This document shows, in pieces, positions 8,862 through 44,539 of a DNA stretch of 53,366 bases (position 1 is the first letter of the stretch; each line of letters starts with the position of its first letter). The stretch is from positions 1 to 53,366 of IMG/VR virus record IMGVR_UViG_3300025582_000056; one strand, 5' to 3'. The DNA comes from a virus. Taxonomy: Duplodnaviria; Caudoviricetes. A program made the translations under genes and the position numbers. The notes beneath the pieces were generated by a model, which was given only the letters and a program-made list of their open reading frames with translations, did not search any database and was not told the DNA's origin.

Positions 8862-9064
8862 CTGTTATTGTGTTTTTAATATTTCACATGATGCTTCTTG
8901 GTCATTCAAATTGATTAAACGTCATTACTACCACCTATTATGCATTTTGGAAACATACCAGAATATTATTCTCCCACTTGGTTTGTTACCCCAAACACAG
9001 TATTTACATTTATTCATAACCATGGTACTACTCATTGGCTAAACACTTATGCTATAATCAACTC

Positions 9065-9598
9065 ATGAATTTTCGTCGTTTGAGTGGTTTTGCTCTTCCA
9101 ACTGTACTAATAGCATCTATGGTGATGCTAACTGTGCTATTAGCTGCTATCACCTCTACGGCTGCAATACGTGTGGCGTTGGTATCTCAATATTACAATC
9201 GACTTGCTCAAACTGCTGGCGATGCTGGTTCGGCCTATGCGAAAGCTTGTCTTACGGCTAATAATGGTGTACCAAGTTGGAGTGACTCTAAACCATTAAA
9301 ACCAGATACTAATTGTGCTGGTGATCCGCTAACTGATCCGCTAACGGGTTTACCAAGTTGTCCGGTCAGTCCAGCTACTGCTACTTGTCATGCAGTCCTA
9401 TTAGATAGTAATAGTAATATTTTTACCACATTTACAGTCGGTCTACCACAATTAGATTCTAACGGTTTAGCGGTTAATGTCGCGTCAGTTGGTTTAGCAA
9501 AGTTAATACGTTCATCCGATCTTGCCAATGGTGTTATTACTGCTTGGCGTCAATATTCTCAAAATAGTAATTTTACTATACAAATTATTAGCTTGTAG
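9065..9598 (+). CDS. PilX/minor-pilin-like N-terminal protein (CPR-like), probably truncated
   Basis: SG/FALPTVLIASMVMLTVLL prepilin-like leader; TGCTATAAT 6 nt before ATG 9065. Confidence 0.65.
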   Translation: MNFRRLSGFALPTVLIASMVMLTVLLAAITSTAAIRVALVSQYYNRLAQTAGDAGSAYAKACLTANNGVPSWSDSKPLKPDTNCAGDPLTDPLTGLPSCPVSPATATCHAVLLDSNSNIFTTFTVGLPQLDSNGLAVNVASVGLAKLIRSSDLANGVITAWRQYSQNSNFTIQIISL

Positions 9599-9883
9599 TT
9601 GGTAACGCCTACGCTTCCTGGATTCAATGGCCAAGTGTCACAACTCATGGAGCTCTATTCCCCGACCCATTTCCTGGGACTACTGGCCTTCCTAATTCAA
9701 ATAGTTGGACTAGCACTAATGGTAATTGGGCAACTCCTTAGTAGCACCACTGACGGTGGAGTGCGTGCCTTTCGTCGTGGTGGCACTTGGTACGGTGGCG
9801 GCTATGCCGGGGTTCTGTCCCTGAATTTGGGCACTTTGCTCAGTGTTACGAGCCCGCTTCTCGGTTTCCGTGTCTCTCGGTGA
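9595..9883 (+). pseudogene. Frameshifted C-terminal fragment of a DGR target (CLec/FGE-type) with VR-like end
   Basis: VVGNAYASWIQWPSVTTHGALFPDPFPGTTGL..WTSTNG (frameshift ~9724) IGQLLS..FRRGG..GFRVSR aligns with the C-terminus of 24720-25985. Confidence 0.8.
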
Positions 9884-9987
9884 CATAGACCTTAGCTCTC
9901 GTGTTTTATTTAATTGTCTGATTAAATTGGCTAGTAACGTCAATAAAATTATTAAAGGATTCAAATGAGCAATAAAAATCGTCAATC

Positions 9988-10266
9988 TTGGTAATTGCTT
10001 ATAATTCTGGTTTTACAGTCTACCAACTAGCTAAACAATTTGGTTGTCATAGGACTACAGTTAGTCAGCATCTAAAATCCCAGGGTATTAAAATGAGGAA
10101 TCGTCCATTGTCTGAGAATCAAATAGACGAGGTTGTTAGGCTTTATGGATCAGGACTGTCATGTGCTAAGGTTGGGAAGATTATTAGGGTGGATGAGGAG
10201 ACGATTCATAGAAGGCTACGAGAGCGTGGTGTTGTTTTGAGGGGAGTTCATGAATCGGTGAGATGA
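9988..10266 (+). CDS. Tandem helix-turn-helix protein, possibly 5'-truncated
   Basis: Two HTH-like repeats (TVYQLAKQFGCHRTTV; SCAKVGKIIRVDEETI); TTG start without clear RBS. Confidence 0.6.
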   Translation: MVIAYNSGFTVYQLAKQFGCHRTTVSQHLKSQGIKMRNRPLSENQIDEVVRLYGSGLSCAKVGKIIRVDEETIHRRLRERGVVLRGVHESVR

Positions 10267-10534
10267 TGATAATTAATTATGGCTTTGATTGGATGTTACT
10301 AGTTCTCATAACTTAAGAAACACATTTATTACATCTATTCAAAGTTTCGCATGGCGACAAAATGAAATATAAGGTAATAATTTATATAACTGGCAAATTG
10401 TAATACGTTGTCATTCTTGCCCACCTTATCTTACTTAGTAACCTCAATGTTCGCTCACGGTCACTTAAACTTTATGCCAACTTTATTTTTTTGTGTAAAA
10501 AATAGTCAAAGGGTCAAATAGCCAAAGCAGTCAA

Positions 10535-12433
10535 TCAATTTTTCAGACAGCGCACCGAAAACCCGATGGCCTTGTCCAAATCACCCCGGTACACAGTAGC
10601 GTTGGACGACTCCAACAATCGCACCGAACGCCCCGAAGCATAATAGAGCTGGGAGCTAGACCACAAGTAAGCATTCGATGACAGACTATAGAAAAACCCA
10701 TCGGCGGCGCGTTCGCCGGCAAACGGTATATTCAACCCAGAGGTGCCACTAGGTTTAAGTTTAGTACCCTGGTCAGTGCCTCGCCAGTTAAGATTAATGT
10801 CGGCTTGTGCCTGGGACATACCAAGTTGCATTTCTAGTATTTTCCACTCATTGTCGGATGGGATATGTGAGCCAGTTGGACAGATGCCTTGAGCACCCTG
10901 CGTAGTGACGTATTGCATAGCTTCGTCCCATTGATAAAGGCCACCGTAGGTTGTGCAGTTTGATTCAGTGTCGGCGTAACAGTATTTTTCTAGGATGGCG
11001 TTGTTAGTCTGGTTGGTGCCACCAGTTATTGTACCACCATTTATTCTGGTACCGACATTTAGATTGGCTTTGGCCCAGACTTGAGTGCCGATAGCTAGCC
11101 AATTGGCACCTAAAGTAAAGTTAGCCGTACATGACTTATTGGCATCCATGGTGATGGTATGACTAGCTACTCCGCTACAGCCAGTGCTGCCAGACCAACT
11201 GCTGAATACGTAAAGAGCGTTTGGGGTGGCTGTGATTGTGGGTGTGGAACCTGCATTGTACGTACCGCCAGCGTTAACTGTACCATTAGTGCCAGCGATG
11301 GTGGTTAGAGTGTATTGAGTAATAGGGCGACTATAGTTTGCACTCCCTGCACCACTCCAAGACCCATTTGCATTAGTATTAGTACACTTAGCCTGGACAG
11401 CTACGGTGTACATATGAGATTCTATTGCTGTAGTAAAGCCAATAGATAAAGCAGCAGGATCATCTGGTGTTTTCCAACCAGCGGTTTGGCTGACACTGTC
11501 TATGAGATAGTTATATTGGTAATTAACCACCGTACCGCTGGCACACCCAGTCGAAGCCCCCCAACTCCAGGTTGTAGTAGGCCCAACCGTGTTGGCAGTA
11601 ACCCCTGGAACTGTAGGTATGGCGGTAATAGGGTTTACATAGGCATTACTTACGGCTCCAACGGCGGCGCTACTAGCTGAAGTTGATGAACCGTCAGGGT
11701 AACAACGAGCTTGGGATTGGTATTCGTATTTAACGCCCTGGTTAGCAACCTGGGTAGCTGTATTGTTAGTAGACCAGGCTGTATAACCTGACCAAGAGCC
11801 ATCGTTAGTACGATTTCTAGTGCCATATTGGGTAACTGCACCTGCTGGGCATGTTGCTGATATGGTAGCTAAGACATTAGAACCATTCAATGTGACGGTT
11901 GTAGTTGGAGCAGCTGGTGTAGCGAGGGTTGGGATAGTATGGCGACTTACCAATGATATGGTATTGCCGGTACTTTCTTCTCGGTATTTGAGGGTGTATT
12001 CCAGACAGGCTGCAGTTTGGCCCGATGTGGTTAGGCATGAATCACTACTATCGCCTACATAGGCAAAGACGTCACTAGCTAGGATTGTAATGGATGGATT
12101 GCAACTTACGGTTGCTGGAGCAGCAAAGGAGTTAGTACCACGGGTACTGCTTGGCGTAGTTAAGTTGGTTGGGTCTACGCCTACCAGCGTGTTAGCTACG
12201 ACTGTACTGGCTGATTGAGACATAGCTGTACAACTTGGGTATTCGCCATGTTGGGAGTAGTACTTTTCTAATGCTTCAGCAATGATTGTTATTTTGGAAG
12301 AACGCTGAGAATCGCGGGTGGATGATTGGATGTTGGCGAAGGATACTATGCCAACTGTGGAGAGGATGCCGATGATGGTTATTACGACGAGGAGTTCTAT
12401 TATTGTGAAAGCGCTTTTGGTTGTTTTATTCAT
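10535..12433 (-). CDS. Prepilin-type adhesin with Ig/FN3-like repeats and C-terminal FISUMP (Fib_succ_major) CLec domain; likely DGR target
   Basis: SA/FTIIELLVVI methylation motif; IGTQVWAKANL, YGGLYQWDEA, ICPTGSHIPSDNEW, GFSVRCLKN. Confidence 0.85.
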   Translation of the reverse strand: MNKTTKSAFTIIELLVVITIIGILSTVGIVSFANIQSSTRDSQRSSKITIIAEALEKYYSQHGEYPSCTAMSQSASTVVANTLVGVDPTNLTTPSSTRGTNSFAAPATVSCNPSITILASDVFAYVGDSSDSCLTTSGQTAACLEYTLKYREESTGNTISLVSRHTIPTLATPAAPTTTVTLNGSNVLATISATCPAGAVTQYGTRNRTNDGSWSGYTAWSTNNTATQVANQGVKYEYQSQARCYPDGSSTSASSAAVGAVSNAYVNPITAIPTVPGVTANTVGPTTTWSWGASTGCASGTVVNYQYNYLIDSVSQTAGWKTPDDPAALSIGFTTAIESHMYTVAVQAKCTNTNANGSWSGAGSANYSRPITQYTLTTIAGTNGTVNAGGTYNAGSTPTITATPNALYVFSSWSGSTGCSGVASHTITMDANKSCTANFTLGANWLAIGTQVWAKANLNVGTRINGGTITGGTNQTNNAILEKYCYADTESNCTTYGGLYQWDEAMQYVTTQGAQGICPTGSHIPSDNEWKILEMQLGMSQAQADINLNWRGTDQGTKLKPSGTSGLNIPFAGERAADGFFYSLSSNAYLWSSSQLYYASGRSVRLLESSNATVYRGDLDKAIGFSVRCLKN

Positions 12434-12474
12434 GGAATTTATTGTAGCAGAATTGAGGAATAATTTATATGCAT

Positions 12475-12798
12475 TTATTTAGTTTGTGTAGTAGTTGGAT
12501 GATTAATTAAATATAATTGTGCTTCAGTATCAACGACACCCTCAGTATTATTTAGTTCTTTGTATTGCTGCCTAGCTTGTTCGAATAATGTTTTGGCTTT
12601 GGCGGTGTCGTTGGCTAGTTCCGCTTTTAGTGCCTGTTCTTTTAAGCTGTCAGCGGTGGCTTTTGTGGTGATACTTGTTTGCTGTGTGTTATTACTACCA
12701 TTTACTGATCTTATTATAAGAATCACGCCAATTGAGATAGCTATAATTAATATTATTGTGATAGCTATGTAGATTAGTCTTTTTTTGTTCTTAAACAT
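12475..12798 (-). CDS. Small membrane-anchored helical (TPR-like) protein
   Basis: N-terminal TM, AAGGAG RBS, close paralog of 13092-13424. Confidence 0.75.
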   Translation of the reverse strand: MFKNKKRLIYIAITIILIIAISIGVILIIRSVNGSNNTQQTSITTKATADSLKEQALKAELANDTAKAKTLFEQARQQYKELNNTEGVVDTEAQLYLINHPTTTQTK

Positions 12799-12816
12799 GA
12801 TTCTCTCCTTAAGTGA

Positions 12817-13424: not shown

Positions 13425-13445
13425 ATTGTCTCCTATTGGTTATTA

Positions 13446-15533
13446 TTAAGGCAATGGGATTACGGCGACAGGAATCAAGCTATTGACAGTTGAGTTGTTG
13501 CCAAGTTGGCCGTTACCGTTCCACCCCCAACAGTAGGCTTGATTATCGGAGGCGATGGCACAGGTTGCAGGGCCAGCCGAAATAGATGTGATCATTTTAC
13601 CGCTTAGTGCCCCAGTATTAATAACAGTTACAGGTATGAAACTATTAGTAGTTGAATTGTTACCAAGTCCACCATAATAATTATATCCCCAACAGTAAGC
13701 ACCGCTGTCGAAAGTAATGACACAAGTAGTATAATGGTCAGCTACAACAGATTTAATCGTCTTGCCATTTAGAACGCCAGCAGCATAAACAGCAACAGGT
13801 ATGGAGCTCTGGCTATCCGAGTTATTGCCGAGCGAACCAGCATAGTTCAGCCCCCAGCAATAGACTTGGTTATCAGAGGCTATAGCGCAAATATGAGCAG
13901 CGCCGGCTGTGATAGCTTTTATGGTCTTGCCGCTCAGGACGCCGGCAGTATAAACAGCGACGGGCACTAAATCAGTATTAGTATGGTTATCACCGGATTG
14001 ACCAAAAGAGCCATCGCCCCAGCAATAAGCTTGATTATCGGAAGCAATAGCGCAAGTATTAGATCCAGCTGTGATAGCTTTTATGGTCTTGCCGCTCAGG
14101 ACGCCAGTAGTATTAACGGCGACAGGAACCATACTCTGGTTAGTTGAATTGTTGCCAAGTTGGCCAGAACTATTAAGCCCCCAACAGTAGACTTGGTCGT
14201 CAGAGGCAATAACACAGGTATGATTAGTGCCGACTGAAATTGATTTAACCGTCTTACCATTTAGGACACCATTAGTATAAACAGCAACAGGTATAGAACT
14301 ATTAGTAGTTGAGTTATTACCAAGTTCGCCGTCGCCATTATAGCCCCAACAATAAGCTTGATCATCAGAAGCAATGGCACAAGTAACCATATTACCGACT
14401 GAAATCTGCTTTATTGTCTTGCCACTCAGGACACCGGCGGTATAAACAGCAACAGGTATAGAACTATTAGTAGTTGAGTTATTACCAAGTTCGCCCTCGC
14501 CATTATGACCCCAACAATAGGCTTGGTTATCGGAGGCAACGGCACAGGTGCGAATACTATCACCCGTAATCTGAGTCCACGTCCTTACACGATAATAATT
14601 TGCTGACCCTGATTCGCTCCAAGTGCTAGTTGCATTAGTGTTATAACACTGGGCTTGGGCAGCCACTGTATATGTTTGCCCTCCAGTTGAAGTTGTAAAA
14701 GCAACCGAAAGATTAGTCCCATTTGCTACCCAACCAGAATCATAGCCTGATGGCGTAATAGTGTAACGGTATTGGTAACGAGCTGTATTGCCAGGACAAG
14801 ATGCCGCACCCCACGACCAAGTTGTTGTGGCACCCACTGTTGCAGCCGTAACGGTCGGAGCTACTGGTGCGTCAATGGTTGTAGTAGCTGTAGCTGTGGT
14901 TGACCAGTTGCTGGTTCCGTTGGCGTCAGTTGCTTGTACTCGATAATAATATGGAGTTCCTTGAGCTAAGCCACTTGATACAAATGTTGAGCCTGCTTGC
15001 GTAGCGATAGTTGTCGCACTCGTGAATGATGAATTGCTACCACGTTGTAGCGTATAGCTGGTTGCACCGGCAGATGCATTCCATGATACGTTAATCGAAG
15101 AACTGGATGCTGCTGTGGCGATTAGATTAGTTGGAATAGCAGTAGCTATAGAGATTGAACGAGAAGCACATGTACCTAGTTGAGCACCCTGGCTGCCAAT
15201 GTTTTGGTCAATGTAATAATGAATGGTAGCGTTTTGTGAGCTAGAGGCATCAATACAGTAGACTACACCGTCACTACTACCACCAGTTAAGATGGTGTTT
15301 TTACTTGGTTTGAAAGTTGTTAGATTGGAGACTAAGGTTGGATATGAGTTATTGAATGTACGAGCACTTTCCATAGCACTAGCTACACCATTGAGGTCAC
15401 TCTTTAGTTGAGCTGAAATGATTGAGTTTTGCCAGTTAGGATAACTAACGATGACAATGCTAGCTAGGATACCAATGACTGAGATGGCAACTATTAGCTC
15501 TACGAGGGTGAAGCCGGGTATTTTTCTTCTCAT
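13446..15533 (-). CDS. Prepilin-type adhesin with FN3 domains and RCC1-like beta-propeller repeats
   Basis: PG/FTLVELIVAI; FN3 motif GLAQGTPYYYRVQA; about 7 TCAIASDNQAYCWG.N..G.LG repeats; TGTTACAAT 7 nt before ATG 15533. Confidence 0.85.
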   Translation of the reverse strand: MRRKIPGFTLVELIVAISVIGILASIVIVSYPNWQNSIISAQLKSDLNGVASAMESARTFNNSYPTLVSNLTTFKPSKNTILTGGSSDGVVYCIDASSSQNATIHYYIDQNIGSQGAQLGTCASRSISIATAIPTNLIATAASSSSINVSWNASAGATSYTLQRGSNSSFTSATTIATQAGSTFVSSGLAQGTPYYYRVQATDANGTSNWSTTATATTTIDAPVAPTVTAATVGATTTWSWGAASCPGNTARYQYRYTITPSGYDSGWVANGTNLSVAFTTSTGGQTYTVAAQAQCYNTNATSTWSESGSANYYRVRTWTQITGDSIRTCAVASDNQAYCWGHNGEGELGNNSTTNSSIPVAVYTAGVLSGKTIKQISVGNMVTCAIASDDQAYCWGYNGDGELGNNSTTNSSIPVAVYTNGVLNGKTVKSISVGTNHTCVIASDDQVYCWGLNSSGQLGNNSTNQSMVPVAVNTTGVLSGKTIKAITAGSNTCAIASDNQAYCWGDGSFGQSGDNHTNTDLVPVAVYTAGVLSGKTIKAITAGAAHICAIASDNQVYCWGLNYAGSLGNNSDSQSSIPVAVYAAGVLNGKTIKSVVADHYTTCVITFDSGAYCWGYNYYGGLGNNSTTNSFIPVTVINTGALSGKMITSISAGPATCAIASDNQAYCWGWNGNGQLGNNSTVNSLIPVAVIPLP

Positions 15534-16222
15534 GAGTTTAATTGTAACACATATATCCATAAACATTATAATTAAACATTATAATTAATAGCAATATTTG
15601 CTCATTATGTTATGGACGCATACATATCTTTCTTCTTTATTACAATGAATGATTATTGTTAAGATTTACTCTTAGGAATGATTCAAAGAAGTTATTTGTC
15701 TTGTCATTAACTATGAATCTTTTTTCGATATTTGCTGGAATACTATTCACTTTATTTTGTTCGTTATATATTCCAATCATTATAAAATGATGGCATCGTA
15801 TGGTGTACTTGAATGAAAAACTACCTGGAACGCATCCACTAGACCCAGGCAAGCGTAAGTATTATTTAATAATTTCAAGAGGGGCTATGATTAGTGCATG
15901 GATATCAACGAACTCATTATTAATGTTATTTGCACAATTATAGGCGGTCTAATAGGTAGCGACATTACGATGAAAGCCATTTTCTCTCAAGCCAGAAACA
16001 GAAAGTTGGCCCATTCTGGTAGCGAAAAGATCAAATCATTCGCAACCATTATGCGAGACAATCAAAGAAGCGTAGCCCTGTGAGGCAGCCGGTTCTGAGC
16101 TGTGTCCAGATAGCAATAGCGACCAAAACTACTAACGCTATTTGATGATTATCATGCCTAATAGCCCTCCCCAAAGCGATTAGTGACCCATTCGCGTCCT
16201 GGATTATTGAGTCTTTGAGGCT

Positions 16223-16810
16223 TCATGTCAGCCGCAACCAGTGGGCTAAACGATCGAGGAAACGCAGCCTTGCGAGATAACCTTTGGCATCATCAAATGG
16301 GAGGACTTCCTTAAAAGCGTTTAATACCTTCGTAGATTCATCGACGTTTTCGGGCAGGGCGATCTGAGAGGAAAAGCCCAAGCGTCGCCTCGGTAGCAGT
16401 AGTACGGTGACGGGTTTTGTGTCATCCACCCCTGCTTGAGCTGTCTCAGTAGTAAAGGCACGGTAGTCGTTCAACTGCAGAGTTTGGTTATTGACGGTGA
16501 GCGTCTGCGTATCGAGACGGTAAGCCAGCTGTCGGGGTGGTCGCGAGTAGGTGACCAGAATCGCAAGGGCAGCGGCTATAGTACAAAGCAATACAAACCA
16601 CTCTTCCAACAAACCCAAGAGTATCGTCAGCCAGAGCATTACGACACAGAATCCAATGTACCACCACCAACGCTTATGCGGACCAGGTTCTGTCGCCGTC
16701 CAAGTGACAGGAAGAACATGCCTCGTGCTACTATTCTTTTCTGGTTCCGATTTTTTCATAGGCCCTTTCGCTTTGGCGTTAGTTGTTGTCGCAATTGTGG
16801 TTCTTTTCAT
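16223..16810 (-). CDS. Two-TM membrane protein (DUF5673-like, common in CPR)
   Basis: VTWTATE...KRWWWYIGF, two TM segments, then PH-like beta region; GAAAGGA RBS; higher GC than neighbours. Confidence 0.55.
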   Translation of the reverse strand: MKRTTIATTTNAKAKGPMKKSEPEKNSSTRHVLPVTWTATEPGPHKRWWWYIGFCVVMLWLTILLGLLEEWFVLLCTIAAALAILVTYSRPPRQLAYRLDTQTLTVNNQTLQLNDYRAFTTETAQAGVDDTKPVTVLLLPRRRLGFSSQIALPENVDESTKVLNAFKEVLPFDDAKGYLARLRFLDRLAHWLRLT

Positions 16811-17009: not shown

Positions 17010-20000
17010 TTAGGGTCGTGGGCCTCTTCCTGCTAGATATCTTATGTGGTCTATGTTATTACCAATGCCTTGTGCGATTTCAGGGCTATCCAATGCCTGA
17101 ATTGCAGAATCCCTCAGATTAGCAGGAATGGGGGCTCCTCCAAGGGAATTCAGAACATATCTTATCTCCTCATTTGAGGTAGTGGCAAGTCTGTTCGAAG
17201 AGTATCTATTAGCAATGGCACCTCGTCGTGCTATATCTTCTAGGTTTAATAAGTCACCAGTACCATTGACACGGTGACCTTCTTGAACGAATTGTATGTC
17301 GCCTGCTCCTATAAATGCAGGACGATTTTTTGATCCGCCAACAGTACTTGCTATTGTACGCATCATCTCGTCGCCGTGACGATCGTGTCTATCACCGTAA
17401 GTTGTAATCATATTATCCCATGCTGTTTGGAATTCAGCAAACTGTCCTCTTTCAAGTTGAGTATCCATCGCTGCTGCCTGTATTGACACATCTCTACCAT
17501 TGATACCTCTGACATTTCCACCATTAGAAATTGTATTAAGCTCAGCATTTGTTACATTTGCTTGTCGTAGTTGTGCCCGACCAGATTCAACGTTCTCCAT
17601 ATCAAGCTTATTTGCTAACTGTGCTGCTTGTTGAGCAGTACGGGTACCCATTGTTCCTGTAACTCTAGATGAGTTTAAGAAAGCGTTACGCCCACTTGCC
17701 AATCTTGTTAGTGGGTTTCTTCCTCTGTAAACACCACCTGTGATCTGAGCTCTTTTAATCTGCTGGTTTCTATCCCATGCCGTTTTGTATGCTCCGAGCA
17801 TTGATGTTTCTTTAACTTTACTGCCGATTCTTCCATTTGCCTTTGTACTAAGGCCAGCCAACTTCGTTCCTATACTACCAGCTGCACTCATAGAATTCTT
17901 TAATAAACTCGGTACCATAAACAACGGAACTATTGCGACGCCTATGGCGACTAATTGCATAACCTTATCTTCACCCGCACTAGCTTTGATAACAAAACCT
18001 GCTAGGCTACCAGCCCCAAATAATATAGAGATAATAGGAAAAACTAATAACAAATTAGCAAACATCTTGCCCCATTTTTTAAAATACTGTTCTGTATTTG
18101 GTAATAAATACGCAACAAAAGCTAGTGGCGATATAATGACCAACAGAACAATTAGTGCTGTACGGGCTATTAGTATCAATACGATCATTAGTAATGCTAA
18201 AAAAACGGATAATAATACAGGGACACTTATTGCGAATAATAACGTTACCCCACCTGCTAACCCCGCGGTAATTAATGCTGCTATACCAAAGCCATTTCCT
18301 GTTGCATTACCAGGTGAGAATACGTCAGGTGTTTGCATAAGCTGGCTAAGGCTACTGAAAAGACTTTTAAATGAATAACCTGAAATATTACTAAGGTCGA
18401 CTGCAATTTGGCATACAACGAAGGATAAGTTAACCAGGATGGCCGCAATGATTAACTTAGGAAACATTTTTTTGATGCCGTAGTTAGTTATGCCTATGCT
18501 AGTAATTTGAGAAAATATAATAATCAGGAACGCGATTACAAACGCAACGTTGGCGATATTACGCATTATTTGCCACGCATTGTATGTGGCAATGGTTCCA
18601 TTATTAGGATCAGTGTTTAATAAGCTAGTATTAGTACTTAGGAAACTGGAAGCAAGAAAATTAAATGCAACGTCCGAGATTTTTCCTAGAAATGTTAGTG
18701 TTGGACAGACAATCCATCCAATTCCTTCGACTGAGCATGAAGTAGTATTTAAAAGTGTAAAGAATTGGCTAGATTGGTCGGCGGGCACGGTTATCGTAAC
18801 GTTACTTTCTGTATTTACTTCTTTTGTAAAAGTCGAGCATAAGCTCGTATCACCAAGGCAGACTTTATAATCATTTGCTTTAGCTGATGGTTCAACTGAA
18901 TTAAAATTTGAATTTGGGCTAGTTGTTAGATTAAAATCTTCGCTGGCAGGTATATGAGCAGGATCTAGGGTTTGGGTACCAGTATTGGTTGTGTTTAATA
19001 TCGTGCCACTATCGGTATTCTTAAGGTTAATTATTATAGGGCCATAGGTTCCCGATTGGACACCACTGGGTATTTTAATATTAACAGTTACTTTGACGGT
19101 TTTACCTAATGAAAAAGAAACCGTATTCGGTGTTCCAAAAGTAACCACAAATAATGTGCCAAGAGTTTTAGTTATGGTTTGGCATTGATCAAAATCGAAT
19201 ATCGAAGATGGTGTGATACATACAGTATATTTACCCGGGTCAATGTTCTTAAAAAACGTCTGTCCTTCAACAGGGTCGCCAAGTAACGTTAAATCGCTAG
19301 ACATTGCCTTAGTTCCCGTACCACTTAAATTTAGTGGTGTTAGCGTAACTTTCATGCCACTTGGCAACTTATCAGAAGATACATTAGAATAGACTGCCAC
19401 CTCTATCTGACTTGTATTAATACTTTCTGGCTGATCACCTATTTGTGTTGTATCGCTAGTACTACCACCTATAGATATATTACTCTGGTTAAAATCCGAT
19501 ATATGGGAAGCAGTTTTTGCACTACATGCATCGATATGTGCCTGACCTTGGGCTCCGTAGGTAGGTTCGGGATTATTCAAACTCGCAGGAGTGGATATGG
19601 AACCAGTTGTACGATCGATCGGATTAACGTTAATTTGTACCCCTGCTGTACACGTAACTGTTTGGCTACCTATATTCAGGAAAGGGACCCAATTCCAAAA
19701 AGAATCATTGTATGTAACAGTTACCTTTGTAGATCCAGTGTATGTAATAGCTATCTTTGTAGGGCCAGTGGCGGTGTTTGAGCCGGTTGTTGTAAAGCTC
19801 AATTTTACGGTATTATCACCAAACTGACCACCAACTGCACCTATATCATTACCGCTATTGTAATATTTGTATGAAGGGACGGACGCTGCTTTAACTTGGG
19901 TGGTGAGTATTGCGGGTATTATTATAGGTGTTAATATTAAGAATAGTAGGCAGCTAATCGTAACCTTGAAAGGTATTCGCTTTGAGATGTTAGCATTTAG

Positions 20001-20012
20001 CCGATTTGACAT
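17010..20012 (-). CDS. Large TrbL/VirB6-like polytopic membrane protein (Saccharibacteria T4SS type)
   Basis: GIGWIVCP, AWQIMRNIAN, NYGIKKMFPKLIIAAILVNLSF..CQIAVDLSN, ISPLAFVAYLLPNT; TGCTATAAT 6 nt before ATG 20012. Confidence 0.75.
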   Translation of the reverse strand: MSNRLNANISKRIPFKVTISCLLFLILTPIIIPAILTTQVKAASVPSYKYYNSGNDIGAVGGQFGDNTVKLSFTTTGSNTATGPTKIAITYTGSTKVTVTYNDSFWNWVPFLNIGSQTVTCTAGVQINVNPIDRTTGSISTPASLNNPEPTYGAQGQAHIDACSAKTASHISDFNQSNISIGGSTSDTTQIGDQPESINTSQIEVAVYSNVSSDKLPSGMKVTLTPLNLSGTGTKAMSSDLTLLGDPVEGQTFFKNIDPGKYTVCITPSSIFDFDQCQTITKTLGTLFVVTFGTPNTVSFSLGKTVKVTVNIKIPSGVQSGTYGPIIINLKNTDSGTILNTTNTGTQTLDPAHIPASEDFNLTTSPNSNFNSVEPSAKANDYKVCLGDTSLCSTFTKEVNTESNVTITVPADQSSQFFTLLNTTSCSVEGIGWIVCPTLTFLGKISDVAFNFLASSFLSTNTSLLNTDPNNGTIATYNAWQIMRNIANVAFVIAFLIIIFSQITSIGITNYGIKKMFPKLIIAAILVNLSFVVCQIAVDLSNISGYSFKSLFSSLSQLMQTPDVFSPGNATGNGFGIAALITAGLAGGVTLLFAISVPVLLSVFLALLMIVLILIARTALIVLLVIISPLAFVAYLLPNTEQYFKKWGKMFANLLLVFPIISILFGAGSLAGFVIKASAGEDKVMQLVAIGVAIVPLFMVPSLLKNSMSAAGSIGTKLAGLSTKANGRIGSKVKETSMLGAYKTAWDRNQQIKRAQITGGVYRGRNPLTRLASGRNAFLNSSRVTGTMGTRTAQQAAQLANKLDMENVESGRAQLRQANVTNAELNTISNGGNVRGINGRDVSIQAAAMDTQLERGQFAEFQTAWDNMITTYGDRHDRHGDEMMRTIASTVGGSKNRPAFIGAGDIQFVQEGHRVNGTGDLLNLEDIARRGAIANRYSSNRLATTSNEEIRYVLNSLGGAPIPANLRDSAIQALDSPEIAQGIGNNIDHIRYLAGRGPRP

Positions 20013-20068
20013 ATGGAAATTATAGCACAATCACCTGTTTAGATTAATAGGCTAAATAAAAACGAAAA

Positions 20069-21109
20069 CTATCTTTGCCCGATCGAGATATAATTAAAAT
20101 TATTCGCACTATTAGCCGCTTCAGATATTGGCTGTTTTATAATCGACAACTGTATGTCATTAAAAACTTCTCTTTTGTGCGAAACATTTTTACCGTCATA
20201 TTGGTCTACGTTTATTGTTAGTTTCACCCCACCAGCTTGAAGTGATGATAATTTTTGACCATTAAAGTTGATAGTCTCAACGGCCCCTAACACATCAGGG
20301 AAGGCAGTAATACTGTTATCTCCACTTTTGGTTGAGCCATTTGCTACGCTATAATTAGCGGCACTTCCATACTTTGAGACTACAGATTTTGCGGTTGCCA
20401 TTAATTTATTGATCGCATCATTATCGGCCGTAAATTCTATAGGCAAACCTTTATTATCTGTGTCTGAGCAATAATTACGAAACTGTTCGTCGATAATGGC
20501 TACAGCGTTTGGTAAAGGATTTTTAGACAACAAATTCATATAAAGATTTAAATTTTTTACCGCATATTCATTGAATACTTTTATAACGGTTTCTTGATTA
20601 TCTTTCTCGGCTGCTGGTAGTTTATAGCGAGTAAATCCAAGGTCGCTCTCTTCTCCCTTGGAATAAGTTAAAGATTTGTAATTCTCTATATACACATCGC
20701 TAATAGGCAAGCCCTGTTTATTGTGTGCATTCTCATATGCCGTCTCAGCATAATAAGTTGAAACGGGATCGGCGTACCTACCGCCTACTTCACTAACAAA
20801 TTGCTTTGCTTCATTGGGTATTGCAGGCAGTTTTTGTGTTTCATTGCCCGGATTAAGGGTATCCGTTACGGCAGCTTTGTTAGTTGGTAAGATAGCTTTA
20901 TCTGACTTATCATTGAGTAAATTCTCAACACCGATGGTAGCTAGGATTGATAACGTTGCTACAGCAGCAATAATCTTTGTCTGTTTACTGTGTAGCCAAT
21001 TTTTATTTTCAGGTGGCATAGATGAAGATTCTCCTCCTTTTAAAGTGGATTCTTTATTTGGCCCATTAAAGATATTGTCTTGGGTGGGATGGTGCAGGTC
21101 TACTGACAT
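20069..21109 (-). CDS. Hypothetical membrane-anchored extracellular protein
   Basis: 346-aa ORF with one N-proximal hydrophobic segment; no recognised family. Confidence 0.6.
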   Translation of the reverse strand: MSVDLHHPTQDNIFNGPNKESTLKGGESSSMPPENKNWLHSKQTKIIAAVATLSILATIGVENLLNDKSDKAILPTNKAAVTDTLNPGNETQKLPAIPNEAKQFVSEVGGRYADPVSTYYAETAYENAHNKQGLPISDVYIENYKSLTYSKGEESDLGFTRYKLPAAEKDNQETVIKVFNEYAVKNLNLYMNLLSKNPLPNAVAIIDEQFRNYCSDTDNKGLPIEFTADNDAINKLMATAKSVVSKYGSAANYSVANGSTKSGDNSITAFPDVLGAVETINFNGQKLSSLQAGGVKLTINVDQYDGKNVSHKREVFNDIQLSIIKQPISEAANSANNFNYISIGQR

Positions 21110-21800: not shown

Positions 21801-22175
21801 ATGAAATCAAAGGAAGAAATAGCAAAGGTTCTGAAAGAATCCAGACAAAAAACCGGGTTATCTGCAAAAGAAGTCATCGAGAAACTAAGCCTGCATGACA
21901 TAAAGGTCAGCCCCAAAACACTGTACGGTTGGGAAAGCGGACATAGTCAACCAGATGCCGATACGCTTTTGCTTCTTTGTGATATATATGGAATTGATGA
22001 TATAATGCTTGCCTTTGGCTACATTAGAACTGAGCAACAACCGATCGATACTAAAACGCCCGAAAAAGCCCAACTTTTGAATAAAGTGGAACAATTGGGT
22101 GAAAACAACTGCAAGGTGGTTTCTGCTTATATTGACGGGTTATTAACCAAGCAAGGGAGCCATTCCCGTGGTTGA
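21801..22175 (+). CDS. XRE-family (CI-like) repressor
   Basis: LKESRQKTGLS...KTLYGWESGHSQPD...LCDIYG; AAGGGGG RBS. Confidence 0.85.
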   Translation: MKSKEEIAKVLKESRQKTGLSAKEVIEKLSLHDIKVSPKTLYGWESGHSQPDADTLLLLCDIYGIDDIMLAFGYIRTEQQPIDTKTPEKAQLLNKVEQLGENNCKVVSAYIDGLLTKQGSHSRG

Positions 22176-22256
22176 TAACACGCTCATTTCATTCTCGTGC
22201 GACTTGCCTGCATATTATTTAAGACCTATCTTATAATTAGGACACTTTTCAGAAAC

Positions 22257-22302
22257 AAAAACAGCTACGAAATGTATCTTTTACACTTCGTAGCTGTTTT
22301 TT
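22257..22302. terminator. Bidirectional intrinsic terminator
   Basis: AAAAACAGCTACGAA...TTCGTAGCTGTTTTTT between convergent ORFs. Confidence 0.75.
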
Positions 22303-22321
22303 CAATTAGTATATTTAATTT

Positions 22322-22550
22322 CTACTTCCAACGCCAAGCAATACCTGAATGAAGTCCACCATAGAGTTGAATAAACTCTTTCTGGATACTACCATCTTCA
22401 CTTATCTCCAAGCGATTTTCATCCACCGGCTCACCCGGACGCTCAATCCGTGAAAGCTTGTCATACGCCCAAATTATAGTCGGCTTCTCCCCTTTGAAGA
22501 CGACTTTCTGCCTGTAAGTCAACGTCGGGGTTTCAAACGATTGCCCTGTG
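22322..22550 (-). pseudogene. C-terminal gene fragment, paralog of 26104-26440
   Basis: SFETPTLTYRQKVVFKGEKPTIIWAY...GGLHSGIAWRW vs SFAIPTFTYNQEIVFIGQKPRVIWSY...GGMFSGVAWEW; no credible start. Confidence 0.65.
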
Positions 22551-22676
22551 TCACATTGCTGACGAGTTCCAGGCGAGACAGAAAGACATCTTTCTAGTTA
22601 TCACACCAGATAAGTTGGAGAGGCTGATCACTAATCACTCTATTTAGATATTTGTTTAAGCTTAGTATCACAATCT

Positions 22677-22709
22677 AAAAAGGCCGTACGCGACTTAACC
22701 GTACAGCCT
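22677..22709 (-). terminator. Intrinsic terminator downstream of TR
   Basis: Minus strand AGGCTGTACG-GTTAAGTCG-CGTACGGCCT-TTTT; the stem is complete (one G-U pair) only on the minus strand. Confidence 0.65.
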
Positions 22710-22827
22710 GAGTCGTATTCGTCTCACTATCCAAAGATAGTAAAGACTGGTTATAAGTGATCGGATACTAATCGGCACAGATCTATCAATAATTAAATTA
22801 ATAGATATCGGGCCACTTTTCATTATC

Positions 22828-22954
22828 CCGGGAGACACGGAATCCGATGTTGCTGTTCGTGTTGCTGGGGCCATTGTTCAAATTCAACGTCAGAACGCCG
22901 TCGTTGCCGCCATTGTTCCAATTCCCGCCGCGGATGAAGCCATACAAGCCCGTC
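22828..22954 (-). repeat. DGR template repeat (TR)
   Basis: 127 bp ungapped match to 24723-24849; 16 mismatches all at TR adenines; 30 adenines, 10 AAY codons. Confidence 0.97.
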
Positions 22955-22975
22955 TATAATCACATAACCATAAGT

Positions 22976-22983
22976 ATTATACT
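22976..22983. promoter_or_regulatory. Overlapping divergent -10 elements (TATACT plus strand, TATAAT minus strand)
   Basis: ATTATACT; plus-strand element is 7 nt before RT GTG, minus-strand element is 21 nt before TR. Confidence 0.55.
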
Positions 22984-22990
22984 ATAGGCA

Positions 22991-24106
22991 GTGATTAAAC
23001 TAAAAGATATATTCAGTTCAGTTACCTCACTGGACACGCTGTTAATAGCACATAGACGAGCGTTAAAAGGCAAACGTTATAATTACTATGCGACTGGCTT
23101 TGATTATAACCTCATCAGCCACTTAATTAAATTACAAGCCGAATTACGTGATCATGAATATAACCCAGGCGGTTATCGTAAAAAGATCATAGTCGAGCCA
23201 AAGGTTCGATGCATCGAAGCCCCAGCCTATCGAGATCGCATAGTCCATCATGCCTTGCATTATTTTTTAAATCCATTTTACGAGCGATTTTTCATTAGCG
23301 ATTCATACGCTTGTCGACAGGGTCGTGGTATACATCATGCGACCGCCAGGGTGCAACAATTCCTTCGCCACGGAGGATCAGATCTATACGTTTGTCAAAT
23401 CGACGTATCCAAATATTATGCATCTGTTAACCATAATCGCCTAATAGAGTTGCTCCAAGGAAAAATCGACGATAAACCATTAATGGAACTGTTATGTAAA
23501 ATAATCGAATCAACCGACAGCGGTACCGAACATGATTCATTATTCGCCCCGGATTCACATTATTTCACCAAGGGTCGTCGAGGCATCCCGATTGGTAATC
23601 TGACATCTCAGTTATTCGCCAATATTTATCTGCACGAAGCTGATATGTACGCCAAACAAACCCTTAAAATTCGTCATTACGTTCGGTATATGGATGACAT
23701 ACTCTTTTTTCATCACGACAAAACTCAGTTGCACGAGTGGAAACAGAGTATGCAAAATTTTCTTTACGATAATCTATATCTAACCATTAACCCGCACAAG
23801 ATCAGACTGTACCCTGCCAAACAAGGTGTTTCATTCGTTGGTTATGTTATATACCCATATTACCTGCGTTTACGTGGTAGCAGCGTTCGACGTTTTCAAA
23901 AACGTTATCGCAAACAGTTACAGGCTTTGTCGTCATGGAAAATTGATATCGACGTCGTAGACAAATCATTCGCATCATGGAAAGCCCACGCATCACACGC
24001 CAGCAGTAAACACCTGATCGAAAGAATGGAAATATTACAAAAAGATTGCCTGGCAAACAGACGGCCAATTCAAATGTCGCTCTTTGAATTATTTGGTGAT
24101 TTATAA
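22991..24106 (+). CDS. DGR reverse transcriptase
   Basis: RDRIVHHAL, QIDVSKYY, GIPIGNLTSQLFANIYL, YVRYMDD, FVGY; adjacent to TR and avd. Confidence 0.95.
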   Translation: MIKLKDIFSSVTSLDTLLIAHRRALKGKRYNYYATGFDYNLISHLIKLQAELRDHEYNPGGYRKKIIVEPKVRCIEAPAYRDRIVHHALHYFLNPFYERFFISDSYACRQGRGIHHATARVQQFLRHGGSDLYVCQIDVSKYYASVNHNRLIELLQGKIDDKPLMELLCKIIESTDSGTEHDSLFAPDSHYFTKGRRGIPIGNLTSQLFANIYLHEADMYAKQTLKIRHYVRYMDDILFFHHDKTQLHEWKQSMQNFLYDNLYLTINPHKIRLYPAKQGVSFVGYVIYPYYLRLRGSSVRRFQKRYRKQLQALSSWKIDIDVVDKSFASWKAHASHASSKHLIERMEILQKDCLANRRPIQMSLFELFGDL

Positions 24107-24450
24107 CGCTTGGCCCAACCGCCACGCATTTTACCAACTTCATCAATTTGAGATATGGCATAGCCTAGAGATTCGGATTTGAGGAAATGCAACTCATACG
24201 CAACCCTCAGCAAACTGCGTAATACCTCCAATTCAACATTCAGTTGATCTAGACTTTTAAGTGTACCCCCCCCCCCCAGCTTGACATTAGCGTTATTTGC
24301 TTGGATAATATATCGCAAACTTAACAATGCACTATTTTCAATTTGCTGCCCCAACACAAAACGCTGCTTTTTGGGAAAAGTGTTTACTTTTTCAAACAAC
24401 CACAAAACCACTTCGAGCATTTTGGTATAGATGATAAATTCTTTTTTCGT
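24070..24450 (-). CDS. avd: DGR accessory variability determinant (Avd, four-helix bundle)
   Basis: IYTKM..WL...NTFPKKQRFVLGQQI...L..LNVELEVLRSLLR...IDEVGKMRGGW; first ATG at 24420 but frame and RBS extend to ACG at 24450. Confidence 0.9.
   Translation of the reverse strand, partial: TKKEFIIYTKMLEVVLWLFEKVNTFPKKQRFVLGQQIENSALLSLRYIIQANNANVKLGGGGTLKSLDQLNVELEVLRSLLRVAYELHFLKSESLGYAISQIDEVGKMRGGWAKRYKSPNNSKSDI
24266..24277 (-). repeat. G12 homopolymer inside avd
   Basis: 12 consecutive C on the + strand, encoding L-G-G-G-G in frame. Confidence 0.85.
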
Positions 24451-24470
24451 AATATCTCCTTTTTTATTAA

Positions 24471-24631
24471 CTCGACTTACGCAAAACCTCGCACTCTTCT
24501 GGCGATACTAGTACCAGTTCAGAATACATTTTCTCTGGTGGAGATGATCCCGTAGGATCATCAACAACAGAAAAATGGTTTATGGACGGTGATAGTGCGT
24601 CAGAGGGTGTAGGGATTTTGCGTAAGTCGAG
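24471..24631. mobile_element. 161-bp MITE-like element
   Basis: Perfect 16-bp terminal inverted repeat CTCGACTTACGCAAAA / TTTTGCGTAAGTCGAG, with TAA on both sides. Confidence 0.7.
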
Positions 24632-24639
24632 TAAATCGC

Positions 24640-24658
24640 AGGGCGGACAAGCCGCCCT
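24640..24658 (-). promoter_or_regulatory. GC-rich hairpin downstream of VR (candidate retrohoming cruciform)
   Basis: AGGGCGG-ACAAG-CCGCCCT about 60 nt beyond the target stop codon. Confidence 0.55.
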
Positions 24659-24719
24659 AAATCTCAAGACTAAAGACCATAAGAGTCAAGAGTCCAAGAG
24701 TTAAGAGCTAAGGTCTGTA

Positions 24720-25985
24720 TCACCGGGAGACACGGAATCCGACGGCGCTGCTCGTGTTGCTGGGGCCATAGGGCAAATTCAACGCCAGAACGCCGCCGCC
24801 GCCGCCACTGCTCCAAAGCCCGCCGCGGAGGAAGCCATACAAGCCCGTCGTGTCATTATTACTATAAATCTGTCCTATACCTTTACCACTATTCCAAGTA
24901 CTAGAAGCACTAGCTCCGGATAAACCAGTACCGGTAGGAGATGGGTTGATCGGTAGAGTGCCATTTGCCGTTATTGATGTCCATTCACGCCAGCCCCAAC
25001 CAGCACCTGAGACACCAGGTTGACCACCAGCGACAGTCCCAGATGTCCATTGCCAGACGTTACCAGCAAAGTCCCAAATGGTCTCGTTGTTTGTTAGTTT
25101 TAGGGTTCGTCTTTGGTTCCCACCAGTATTAGTTTCACCAGCATAGCCGTTGGCATCGTTTGAATCAGGGGCAAGAGCGCCAGTTGGAGTATTGTCGTTG
25201 TGTCCTGAATAGATATAATTTGTGCCAACAGTGCCACCATACCAGTTACTGCCTACAGATAAGACGTTTTGGGCAATCGTCATCCATTCAGCCTCGGTAA
25301 TTAAGTGACAACCTGTGCAGCCAGCTACGTTGGGGCTATTGGCTATGGCAGTGGTTTGGGAGATGCTAACCCAAGGCAGAACGCTTGGTACGGATATTGG
25401 GACGTTGGTTGTTCCTACTTGACTGGCAGCATACTTCATAGTACAGAAACCAGCTTGACCGTATGTAGCGGATCCAGGTACTGGTATAAAGTTAGTTGGA
25501 CAATTGGTCGGTTGAGCTAGAGCTACTGGGGAAGAATTATCGTTAATACCATAGGCTGTGCCGTTGGTGTTGGTGTCAGTTAATGCAAAAGTTGTACCAC
25601 CATTGGTAGTATAAATTAATGTATTACTGCTACTTGATTTGAGACAATAGGTATTATCTACATTGGGAAGTGTAGGGCAGTTACTACCATTCATAGTAAT
25701 TGGATAAGAGCCATATAGCTGGTTATACATTTTTAGTTGTGTAGATGCAGTGGTTAGATCAGATTGTAGTACGGAGGCAGTAGCACGAGAGGTTATGCCT
25801 AGGTAGGATACTATCGTTATGGTTGCTAGGATGGCTATTACTACTATGACTACGAGGAGTTCGACGATGGTAAAGGCGGGGGAAGAAGTTACTTGATGGC
25901 CCGACTGCCGGTGCCGGTTCGGAAAAATATTATCTAATCTTCTTAGTGCTTTATCGGATATTTGTGTTGAAATATACTTAGTCAT
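24720..25985 (-). CDS. DGR target: prepilin-headed protein with FGE-sulfatase-type CLec domain
   Basis: PA/FTIVELLVVIVVI; HLITEAEW, IWDFAGNVWQW, RGG...GFRVSR; contains the VR. Confidence 0.92.
   Translation of the reverse strand: MTKYISTQISDKALRRLDNIFPNRHRQSGHQVTSSPAFTIVELLVVIVVIAILATITIVSYLGITSRATASVLQSDLTTASTQLKMYNQLYGSYPITMNGSNCPTLPNVDNTYCLKSSSSNTLIYTTNGGTTFALTDTNTNGTAYGINDNSSPVALAQPTNCPTNFIPVPGSATYGQAGFCTMKYAASQVGTTNVPISVPSVLPWVSISQTTAIANSPNVAGCTGCHLITEAEWMTIAQNVLSVGSNWYGGTVGTNYIYSGHNDNTPTGALAPDSNDANGYAGETNTGGNQRRTLKLTNNETIWDFAGNVWQWTSGTVAGGQPGVSGAGWGWREWTSITANGTLPINPSPTGTGLSGASASSTWNSGKGIGQIYSNNDTTGLYGFLRGGLWSSGGGGGVLALNLPYGPSNTSSAVGFRVSR
24723..24849 (-). repeat. DGR variable repeat (VR)
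   Basis: Last 42 codons of the target; 12 amino-acid differences from TR, all explained by adenine substitutions. Confidence 0.97.
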
Positions 25986-26103
25986 AGATAAAGAGTACGC
26001 TTTCTAAATATTATATAATCCATATTATGGATTGTATCATGAGCGGGATAAATTTTACAAGGTTATTACTTTCAACTGCCAGACAAATATTAACTTTTAG
26101 ATA

Positions 26104-44535: not shown

Positions 44536-44539
44536 CACC

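Follow-up and report, generated by a model that had tools for sequence, protein, structure and literature searches.

The minor pilin PilX2 of Nanosynbacter lyticus TM7x is described as part of a thin T4P-2 pilus, with a seven-bladed RCC1 beta-propeller, and is reported to be needed for efficient host binding (PMC11623550). According to a recent preprint, VirB6 homologues are widespread in the type IV secretion systems (T4SS) of the Candidate Phyla Radiation (CPR) and essential in one cultivated strain, and the gene flow discussed there runs from monoderms into CPR (10.1101/2025.01.22.634366). The known hosts of cultivated Saccharibacteria are said to include Actinobacteria (PMC10746230). Among mobile elements, the integrative mobilizable elements (IMEs) of IME_Class_8 in streptococci are described with a VirD4 coupling protein, a PF13814/MobC relaxase, and a serine integrase (PMC5357655). 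Here we analyze the whole of virus record IMGVR_UViG_3300025582_000056, a single 53,366-bp contig (the window), in which genes resembling the CPR attachment and secretion components lie within what appears to be such an element. Full-text literature searches, supplements excluded, gave no report of CPR attachment or T4SS genes in a Firmicute element.

The contig is a genuine mosaic, and we consider it probable that it is a Firmicute-borne element with CPR-derived cargo. Its frame would be a Clostridia-type (Oscillospiraceae-like) IME that bears defense cargo and lies next to a prophage lysis cassette, and the cargo region of this frame would have taken up ~16 kb of Saccharibacteria-like Patescibacteria DNA, now split into two blocks by a resident pair of helix-turn-helix (HTH) genes. 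The acquired DNA would comprise a PilX2-like RCC1 minor pilin, a pilin-Fib_succ lectin-like protein, a VirB6-like protein with two CPR-type neighbors, a whole diversity-generating retroelement (DGR) cassette, and what is left of a second PilX2-like gene, joined to the dead end of a DGR target. A first-pass annotation of the same DNA had proposed a CPR-to-Firmicute transfer made of several pieces; gene ancestry, the frame, and the join bear this out in part, while the Firmicute carrier and the number of events go beyond those data.

For description, we divided the window into segments A (left flank), B (8.9-21.3 kb), C (21.3-22.55 kb), D (22.55-26.05 kb), E (26.1-46.2 kb), and F (46.2-53.4 kb). 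The CPR-type DNA is held in blocks B and D, and ~36 kb of the 53 kb is non-CPR-type. GC content changes in steps (33 to 36% over 1-8 kb, 37 to 47.5% over 9-26 kb, 41 to 54% over 26-46 kb, and 34 to 35% over 46-48 kb). Tetranucleotide deviations along the window, a check that the first-pass annotation had suggested, set the two blocks apart from their flanks: r is 0.61 between B and D, pooled Saccharibacteria loci give 0.60 with B and 0.56 with D, and both blocks reach just 0.15 to 0.38 with A, C, E, and F, which correlate among themselves at 0.38 to 0.66. Segment E resembles Oscillospiraceae loci (r = 0.79), and most of its genes have GGAGG-type Shine-Dalgarno sites, which are mostly not found on the CPR-type genes. 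By gene content, Shine-Dalgarno use, and tetranucleotides, the flanks and the interruption at 21.4-22.55 kb differ in kind from the two blocks, as first described.

The ancestry of the CPR-type genes was assessed by phyletic counts in a Clostridia-class sample (genomes of the class to which an Oscillospiraceae metagenome-assembled genome [MAG] belongs) and a Patescibacteria sample (genomes of that phylum). The core of the VirB6-like protein occurred in 0 of 399 scored Clostridia-class genomes (2 further genomes were unscored) and in 201 of 301 Patescibacteria genomes, or 200 of 300 without the unpublished genome G559; it was also present in all four Patescibacteria genomes reached by loci and had no match in the Oscillospiraceae MAG. 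The protein had three relatives on genome contigs, the best from a Saccharibacteria MAG (50%), and no match in 72,556 plasmids (tblastn). The DGR target was found in 48 of 151 Patescibacteria genomes versus 0 of 150 Clostridia-class genomes, with nearly full-length matches on large contigs of G514 (55%) and G536 (45%). For the Fib_succ pilin the corresponding counts were 101/141 and 6/140, the six being domain pieces or short pilin heads only, and its N-terminal 200 aa are 40 to 45% identical to 560-aa proteins of the same two Patescibacteria genomes. Of 154 candidate stretches for the RCC1 pilin, 137 were relatives, and the best 80 were kept, corresponding to 79 distinct loci. Among these best 80 of 137, none of the 79 loci was Firmicute-labeled, non-CPR entries matched the RCC1 domain only, and the three matches starting within the first 10 residues all came from Saccharibacteria MAGs (L006, L025, and L042; 58, 53, and 47%, the lowest being L042). 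The FN3/RCC1 architecture seen in the first-pass annotation is confirmed, and the full-length relatives in this set are all Saccharibacteria-labeled.

The sole close relative of the DGR reverse transcriptase (RT) lies on Saccharibacteria contig L097 (58%; pair support in a tree, 100/100). RTs at ~38% occur in both groups, and the assignment of the DGR therefore rests on its cassette and target and not on the RT. No match was obtained for positions 8000-27000 against plasmids and phages (megablast), and the VirB6-like, STAND, RT, and target proteins had no relatives among viral contigs; a scan of metagenome contigs returned a single relative (45%). Best matches, phyletic distribution, cassette synteny, promoter conservation, and composition support the assignment of blocks B and D as Patescibacteria/Saccharibacteria-type.

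Saccharibacteria hold these genes in separate loci among housekeeping genes, which makes "several pieces" a reasonable description. Glycosyltransferases, ABC-F, Dus, and an AddA-type helicase surround the RCC1 and pilin-lectin genes; a Mur ligase, an RRM protein, and an ABC ATPase surround the DGR; and a T4SS cluster surrounds the VirB6-like gene. Within a single genome, G536, homologues of the VirB6-like, target, and pilin genes are spread over >500 kb. In the window, the homologues are packed together with no housekeeping gene between them, the VirB6-like gene has become an orphan, and another gene survives only as debris. This arrangement speaks for DNA captured from several source loci, either event by event or all at once with later deletions, rather than for a native segment of CPR chromosome.

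The CPR-type genes also keep the leaderless-type starts first noted, which are of the Saccharibacteria type and have the form TGnTATAAT-N6-ATG. Both 9065 and the 1006-aa gene, the latter at its M7 start, show the arrangement TGCTATAAT-N6-ATG, and TACAAT/TATACT boxes stand 6 to 7 nt upstream of the starts of 10535-12433 and the RT gene. These leaderless extended -10 promoters are native to the genes: cttatgctataat stands 6 nt ahead of the ATG both at 9065 and in the homologous genes of loci L004 and L020, and a tgctacaata box precedes both 10535-12433 and its L004 homologue. Gram-positive cells should be able to use extended -10 promoters and leaderless mRNAs.

The DGR, already recognized in the first-pass annotation, is complete, with template repeat (TR), variable repeat (VR), RT, Avd, and target all present. 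All 16 mismatches between TR and VR fall at TR adenines, read on the coding (-) strand, and all lie at codon position 1 or 2, a pure adenine-mutagenesis signature. The RT gene starts 37 nt from the TR and is transcribed divergently from it, as in L097. The VR forms the last 42 codons of the target, which scores just 18.6 bits with the FGE-sulfatase family (cut-off, 23.3) and whose prepilin head scores 0.0015 with N_methyl, below the Pfam cut-off, and 18.9 bits with TIGR02532 (cut-off, 16.3). Relatives of this region come from a different study (X3 and X4), which covers 21198-27499 at 95 to 99% identity. In X3, paired indels of the TR (22870 and 22873) have counterparts at the corresponding site of the VR (24762 and 24768), a pattern that fits TR-to-VR copying having continued after the window and X3/X4 lineages split. 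The listed indels between the window and X3/X4 inside the target gene keep the frame (-1/+1 pairs 6 to 16 nt apart and one -3), with 9 further indels outside this listing. A 186-nt stretch of the cassette, between Avd and the VR, looks like an insertion of the miniature inverted-repeat transposable element (MITE) type; the X3/X4 relatives have 22 different letters in its place (joint 24447>24634). The open reading frames (ORFs) of 632, 706, 1006, 371, 116, and 421 aa are intact.

Two paralogous small ORFs on the same strand, 22322-22553 and 26104-26379, flank the DGR block. The junction between segment C and this block lies at 22546-22553, where X3/X4 contigs branch on both sides with an 8-nt overlap, precisely at the point where the left small ORF loses its 5' end. 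The junction would be an 8-bp microhomology deletion in the window's lineage, a reading we prefer because the N-terminus that the small ORF lacks is found, on in-frame reading by eye, where X3 continues the C side. An insertion sequence arriving with an 8-bp duplication was considered for the same branch point and rejected.

The 1006-aa protein had been called TrbL/VirB6-like. It matched no Pfam (TrbL included), NCBIfam, or PHROG profile, and its family gave chance-level profile matches only against PDB (an ATP-synthase b coiled coil, E 0.003). Five hydrophobic stretches lie within residues 486-713, one of which (580-647) is long enough for at least two helices. An AlphaFold (AF2) model of the core, with a pLDDT of 63.8, retrieved TrwI/VirB6 of R388 at Foldseek ranks 1 to 5 (E 0.014 to 0.05; TM 0.26 to 0.42). 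In Saccharibacteria genome G002 (locus L001), a homologue and its paralogue have as neighbors, on their two sides, genes for a VirB4-like ATPase, PrgI/VirB3, a VanY hydrolase, and a T4SS pilin. The VirB6 half of the earlier label is thus retained, as a name that reflects this T4SS context and a weak fold likeness in a model rather than a profile match or tested membership in the family. No VirB4, VirB3, or T4SS pilin gene occurs in the window. Of the two CPR-type neighbors, the 195-aa protein scored 0.95 in Atlas (TM 0.65/0.77) against clusters whose commonest phyla are Minisyncoccota and Saccharimonadota, and the 346-aa protein had no family match in Pfam, NCBIfam, or PHROG; neither resembles the ORFs beside the L001 VirB6-like homologue.

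Four prepilin-headed genes had been reported, and three of them carry a canonical N-terminal cleavage/methylation motif and a hydrophobic helix. The fourth (9065-9598) proved to be a fragment with a noncanonical pilin head and no family match in Pfam, NCBIfam, or PHROG; it is 53% identical over 175 aa to the N-terminus of a Saccharibacterial RCC1 protein in L004. Directly behind it lie the last ~90 codons of a decayed pilin-CLec gene, and TAG, frameshift, and domain deletion together mark the region 9065-9883 as a pseudogene. An alternative genetic code was considered for the in-frame stop at 9596 and rejected on the same combination of lesions. The VR-like stretch within the decayed piece (~9754-9880) differs from the TR at 48 positions, of which 27 are not A, and forms a 39-nt inverted repeat with the end of the VR. 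We take it for a dead relative and not for a second target of the window's TR. Between the two large pilin genes lie two single-pass membrane proteins of 107 and 110 aa (12475-12798 and 13092-13424).

The frame on either side of these blocks is of another kind. The left flank is a defense islet, with PDC-S06 beside a type III restriction-modification (R-M) pair. The last non-CPR gene to the left of the left junction, 7871-8797, has a homologue in the Oscillospiraceae locus L084 and is paralogous to an element gene at 42110-42853 (31%, 7e-31), so that the CPR-type DNA sits between two element-kind genes. To the right, segment E also contains the intact small-ORF paralogue, several genes without an assigned family, an OmpA-family protein, an amidoligase, and GGACT genes. 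The methylase, coupling protein, and relaxase of its mobilization module show 49 to 67% identity and the same order in two Oscillospiraceae MAG contigs (L083 and L084), and the second serine recombinase has its top plasmid match in a Peptoclostridium replicon (58.5%). The class 8 IME signature set, consisting of a VirD4-type coupling protein, a PF13814 relaxase, and a serine integrase, is present. The relaxase had no match among plasmids (tblastn), the type III Res and STAND proteins gave plasmid matches that were weak or spread across phyla and do not indicate a host, and the endolysin gave weak phage matches with mixed hosts. Segment F contains att-like repeats, a truncated rve transposase, and a holin-endolysin lysis cassette, which probably explains the viral label of the record.

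The 82-kb contig behind locus L084 offers an approximate empty-site comparison for the window element. Next to its module come a large serine recombinase and, beyond that, genes for Glf, a galactofuranosyltransferase, and an aminotransferase, which indicate that the L084 element is chromosomally integrated. Left of the module lie a homologue of 7871-8797/42110-42853 and two Sec-type surface proteins (L084 1672-4811; among their domains a Fib_succ_major-like one and a glycine-rich one), in the same cargo slot as the CPR-type blocks of the window. The Fib_succ_major-like protein has a Sec signal and no prepilin head. This slot contains no CPR-type gene, and neither the VirB6-like protein nor the target nor the Fib_succ pilin found a match in the genome to which L084 belongs. 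Surface proteins may be habitual cargo of this element family.

Table 1. Features of the window, from left to right, with the evidence for each
Feature	Position	Strand	Evidence or remark
Candidate defense ATPase (AAA_13; PADLOC PDC-S06)	443..2614	-	Pfam AAA_13 1.8e-17; PDC-S06 4.7e-167, full length
Type III R-M pair	Res 2814-5345, Mod 5346-7466	-	ResIII 1.4e-15, N6_N4_Mtase 1.5e-41; PADLOC REase_III, MTase_III
308-aa element-type gene, amidoligase-associated domain and Spo0E-like C-terminus	7871..8797	-	Spo0E-like 1.5e-8
PilX2-type (RCC1-protein) N-terminal domain fragment	9035/9065..9598	+	In-frame TAG 9596-9598; leaderless-type promoter directly upstream
Decayed 3' end of pilin-CLec gene	9599..9883	+	Frameshift near 9724; tblastn to target residues 332-421, two frames
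Small double-HTH protein (HTH_7/HTH_23)	9988..10266	+	Pfam
632-aa prepilin-headed protein, Flg_new_2 and Fib_succ_major	10535..12433	-	N_methyl 8.9e-5
Two paralogous small membrane proteins	12475-12798, 13092-13424	-	116-nt repeat, 78% identical; good Shine-Dalgarno sites
706-aa PilX2-like minor pilin: prepilin head, FN3, seven RCC1 repeats	13446..15566	-	N_methyl 7.4e-7
195-aa CPR-type small membrane protein	16223..16810	-	31% to L003 protein near L003's VirB6-like gene
1006-aa CPR T4SS-associated VirB6-like polytopic membrane protein	17010..20030	-	Probable start 20012; N-terminal ~420 aa variable
346-aa membrane-anchored protein	20069..21109	-	Atlas 0.78 to Saccharimonadota clusters, lead only
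Divergent Cro/C1-type HTH pair, non-CPR interruption	21425-21640, 21801-22175	-, +	HTH_26 1.1e-7; HTH_31/HTH_3; PHROG repressor families
Small ORF, 5'-truncated copy	22322..22553	-	Intact paralogue 26104-26379, 47% aa identity, DNA alignment
DGR template repeat (TR)	22828..22954	-	127-nt TR/VR pair
DGR reverse transcriptase, 371 aa	22991..24106	+	RVT_1 7.3e-22
DGR accessory protein Avd, 116 aa	24070..24420	-	bAvd 3.6e-19; 63% to L097
MITE-like insert, 186 nt	24448..24633	.	21-nt inverted repeats 24466-24486/24616-24636
DGR target, 421 aa: prepilin head and C-terminal lectin-like domain	24720..25985	-	VR 24723-24849
Kinase-STAND NTPase-TPR protein, defense-like	26472..29969	-	PD-T4-6-like kinase; first large gene right of CPR-type DNA
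Mobilization module: MT-A70 methylase, VirD4-type coupling protein, PF13814 relaxase	35506..39420	+	TrwB_AAD_bind/T4SS-DNA_transf; Replic_Relax 8.8e-40
Two large serine recombinases, right end of element	43216..46144	+	Resolvase+Recombinase+Zn_ribbon, twice
Phage lysis genes: holin-like, Amidase_3 endolysin	51674..52704	-	Pfam, PHROG

We infer, rather than observe, the direction of transfer and a Firmicute carrier, the carrier because the contig bears no chromosomal marker. The order of the segments cannot tell host from guest, since the CPR-type DNA lies mid-contig and both contig ends are mobile DNA. The contig could thus come from a Saccharibacterial or other Patescibacterial genome, or from an element of one, into which the IME, the defense genes, the HTH pair, and the prophage had moved. 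Element cargo is usually gathered from the resident cell, the left flank and the CPR-type block are equally deep, and a monoderm-type relaxase and coupling protein could exploit a resident CPR T4SS; these systems are described as homologous to monoderm MPF_FATA and as mostly lacking relaxases (10.1101/2025.01.22.634366). Against this stand the missing housekeeping neighbors, a VirB6-like gene separated from VirB4/PrgI, and a pilin reduced to debris; moreover, the non-CPR-type majority of the window shares one composition, and the blocks lie between paralogous element genes, in a cargo slot also seen in a chromosomally integrated Oscillospiraceae relative. We regard this reversed direction as unlikely.

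Still less probable, to a degree that we would put at only a slight chance, is that no transfer between phyla took place, the families being native to a poorly sampled Firmicute lineage and their likeness to CPR reflecting shared monoderm ancestry. The CPR T4SS does share ancestry with monoderm systems, as that preprint presents it; the identities to CPR genomes are modest, similarly distant DGR RTs occur in both groups, and the related Oscillospiraceae element has its Fib_succ_major-like surface protein in the same slot. That protein, however, is the one with a Sec signal in place of a prepilin head. A native origin is also at odds with the Clostridia-class counts of 0/399, 0/150, and 6/140 (partial) next to 201/301, 48/151, and 101/141 in Patescibacteria, with noncoding promoter sequence conserved with Saccharibacteria, and with a composition unlike that of the flanks.

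Contiguity was assessed in Logan assemblies of X1 and X2, the probable source runs, which hold 99% of the words of 20000-27500; because their depths are nearly identical, the two were counted as one data set re-assembled by another program. Three long contigs, 290-10846 (10,557 nt, depth 94), 14466-24235 (9,770 nt), and 24266-~49435 (25,170 nt), each hold both CPR-type and Firmicute-type DNA. None of the X1/X2 contigs ends at the four junctions near 8.9, 21.3, 22.55, and 26.1 kb, and depth shows no step at a CPR/Firmicute junction. The breaks between them, at 10.85-11.07, 13.9-14.5, and 24.24-24.27 kb, all lie inside CPR-type, intact ORFs, where low-depth relatives in the source sample create branches. 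In the second study, a 3,435-nt X3 contig bridges 24684-27499, from the DGR target into the STAND gene and across 26.1 kb, at ~96.5% identity, and an X4 contig bridges 24089-24447 and 24634-24744, i.e., the 24.25 kb break. The first-pass annotation had named a chimeric assembly or best hits to Firmicute proteins as outcomes that would overturn its view; the junctions proved continuous, and the best hits of the blocks were to Patescibacteria. The join is not an assembly artifact, and chimerism is unlikely. Source-run contigs of low depth match the window up to 9883, 10534-11101, and 25835-25877 and then diverge, and source-run depth rises to 110 to 130 over 10.8-14.8 kb; the same sample thus contains close relatives of the CPR-type genes, which may be true Saccharibacteria. 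A metagenomic chimera of a Saccharibacterial genome and a Firmicute element, which could appeal to these co-occurring relatives, to the extra depth and loose ends (9883, 10534-11101, and 25835), to the depth steps from 94 to 64, and to the Logan breaks, is largely refuted and in our view highly improbable, given that every break falls within a CPR-type intact ORF, that all three long contigs are hybrid, and that the second study bridges the 24.25 and 26.1-26.84 kb stretches.

Several observations weigh against a Firmicute-borne mosaic and temper our confidence in it. The frame owes its Firmicute label to two MAG contigs, one plasmid match, and knowledge of the families; the coupling protein matched 2 of 200 Clostridia-class genomes, one being G001 itself, too few for it to be used as a phyletic test. 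The contig bears no chromosomal or rRNA/tRNA marker: a tRNA scan found no tRNA gene, Rfam gave no match at the gathering threshold, and the contig ends have no terminal overlap. The RT was found in 62 of 251 Patescibacteria genomes (best, 39%) and in 37 of 251 Clostridia-class genomes (best, 38%), and its deep placement in the tree lacks resolution, so the RT alone is not diagnostic. The nearest CPR genomes are just 40 to 60% identical, which means that no donor is in hand and that the transfer need not be recent. A Pfam scan of the window ORFs found no prepilin peptidase or pilus assembly gene. With respect to contiguity, X1/X2 represent a different assembly (Logan) and not independent reads, and the 22.55 kb junction is not common to the X3/X4 relatives, whose coverage there spans 21198-27499; the lack of cover of 7.5-21.2 kb in X3/X4 was given no weight, and the small-share runs X5-X19 were left out of the evidence. 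Finally, depth drops along the contig from 94 (as far as 24.2 kb) to 88 (as far as 26.86 kb) and then to 63.5; the second step, at ~26.84 kb, lies inside the Firmicute-type STAND gene and not at a CPR/Firmicute junction, and the sample may hold a heterogeneous population or a second arrangement that accounts for the fall.

On the reading we prefer, that of a Firmicute-borne element with CPR-derived cargo, DNA of an epibiont or neighbor would have been captured by illegitimate recombination. A prepilin peptidase of the carrier itself could then process the intact pilin-headed proteins, which would serve as accessory, DGR-variable adhesins on the carrier's type IV pilus or pseudopilus. Lacking VirB4/VirB3, the orphan VirB6-like gene would probably be a passenger.

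Two further features concern the outer parts of the window. Positions 1-245 contain the start of a DUF4277-type transposase gene (8.5e-6), which marks the left end of the contig as a repeat-prone element. In segment F, direct repeats of 60 to 110 nt that are 92 to 97% identical occur just after the serine recombinases (46175-46320) and then 1.5 and 3 kb on (47702-47762 and 49215-49323). These att-like repeats contain a 10-nt periodic CTGGTGCA motif and bracket a gene of 27% GC (46522-47376; phrog_1762) and the truncated rve transposase. Tandem accretion at one att site is a possible explanation for them.

Genes typical of Saccharibacteria, which are tiny parasites, in a Clostridia-type mobile island would be a rare physical trace of gene flow from an epibiont to another phylum. 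If the carrier is a Firmicute, the window would be a physical record of the transfer of host-binding genes from an epibiont to its host or neighbor, would point to a Clostridial partner for Saccharibacteria in soil or sediment, and would supply concrete proteins with which adhesin and anti-epibiont decoy roles could be tested. A Clostridial host, if real, would belong to a phylum outside the known (Actinobacteria) hosts. We offer only tentatively, and consider rather doubtful, the further idea that the island records DNA passing physically between an epibiont of the Saccharibacteria and its Clostridial host, a traffic that could take two nonexclusive forms. The element might shuttle through the epibiont's monoderm-type T4SS, having picked up its cargo while resident in the epibiont. 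In addition or instead, and speculatively, the host might keep epibiont attachment parts (the PilX2-like adhesin, the DGR-variable pilin-lectin, and VirB6) in a defense island as decoys that mask its own receptors or jam docking, an anti-epibiont analogue of superinfection exclusion. Were the direction of transfer reversed, the window would instead document a relaxase-bearing mobilizable element in a CPR cell and bear on the cargo of CPR T4SS.

Compared with described systems, the locus combines close likenesses with clear departures. Its DGR cassette has the same order and strands as that of L097, from Saccharibacteria MAG UBA6209 (TR [-], RT [+], Avd [-], and pilin-lectin target [-]), with RT, Avd, and target 58, 63, and 50% identical; it differs in the MITE-like insert and in its surroundings, a truncated small ORF and a STAND gene, whereas the L097 cassette is flanked by Mur-ligase, RRM, and ABC-ATPase housekeeping genes. 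The 706-aa protein, compared by description only, matches TM7x PilX2 in its pilin-type N-terminus and seven-bladed RCC1 domain. It departs from PilX2 in having an FN3 domain and a canonical G/FTLVE prepilin motif (G, then cleavage), whereas PilX2 is reported to lack a predicted PilD signal (PMC11623550), and in lying within a Firmicute-type element with no pilus machinery nearby. With the VirB6-like component of the Patescibacterial T4SS (10.1101/2025.01.22.634366), the window protein shares the polytopic core seen in 201 of 301 sampled Patescibacteria, but its gene is an orphan and the protein is long (1006 aa), with a unique N-terminal part of ~420 aa. Lastly, the element has the same three signature genes in the same compact order as the IME_Class_8 elements of streptococci (PMC5357655), from which it differs by two recombinases instead of one, cargo of >25 kb, and the CPR-derived nature of part of that cargo.

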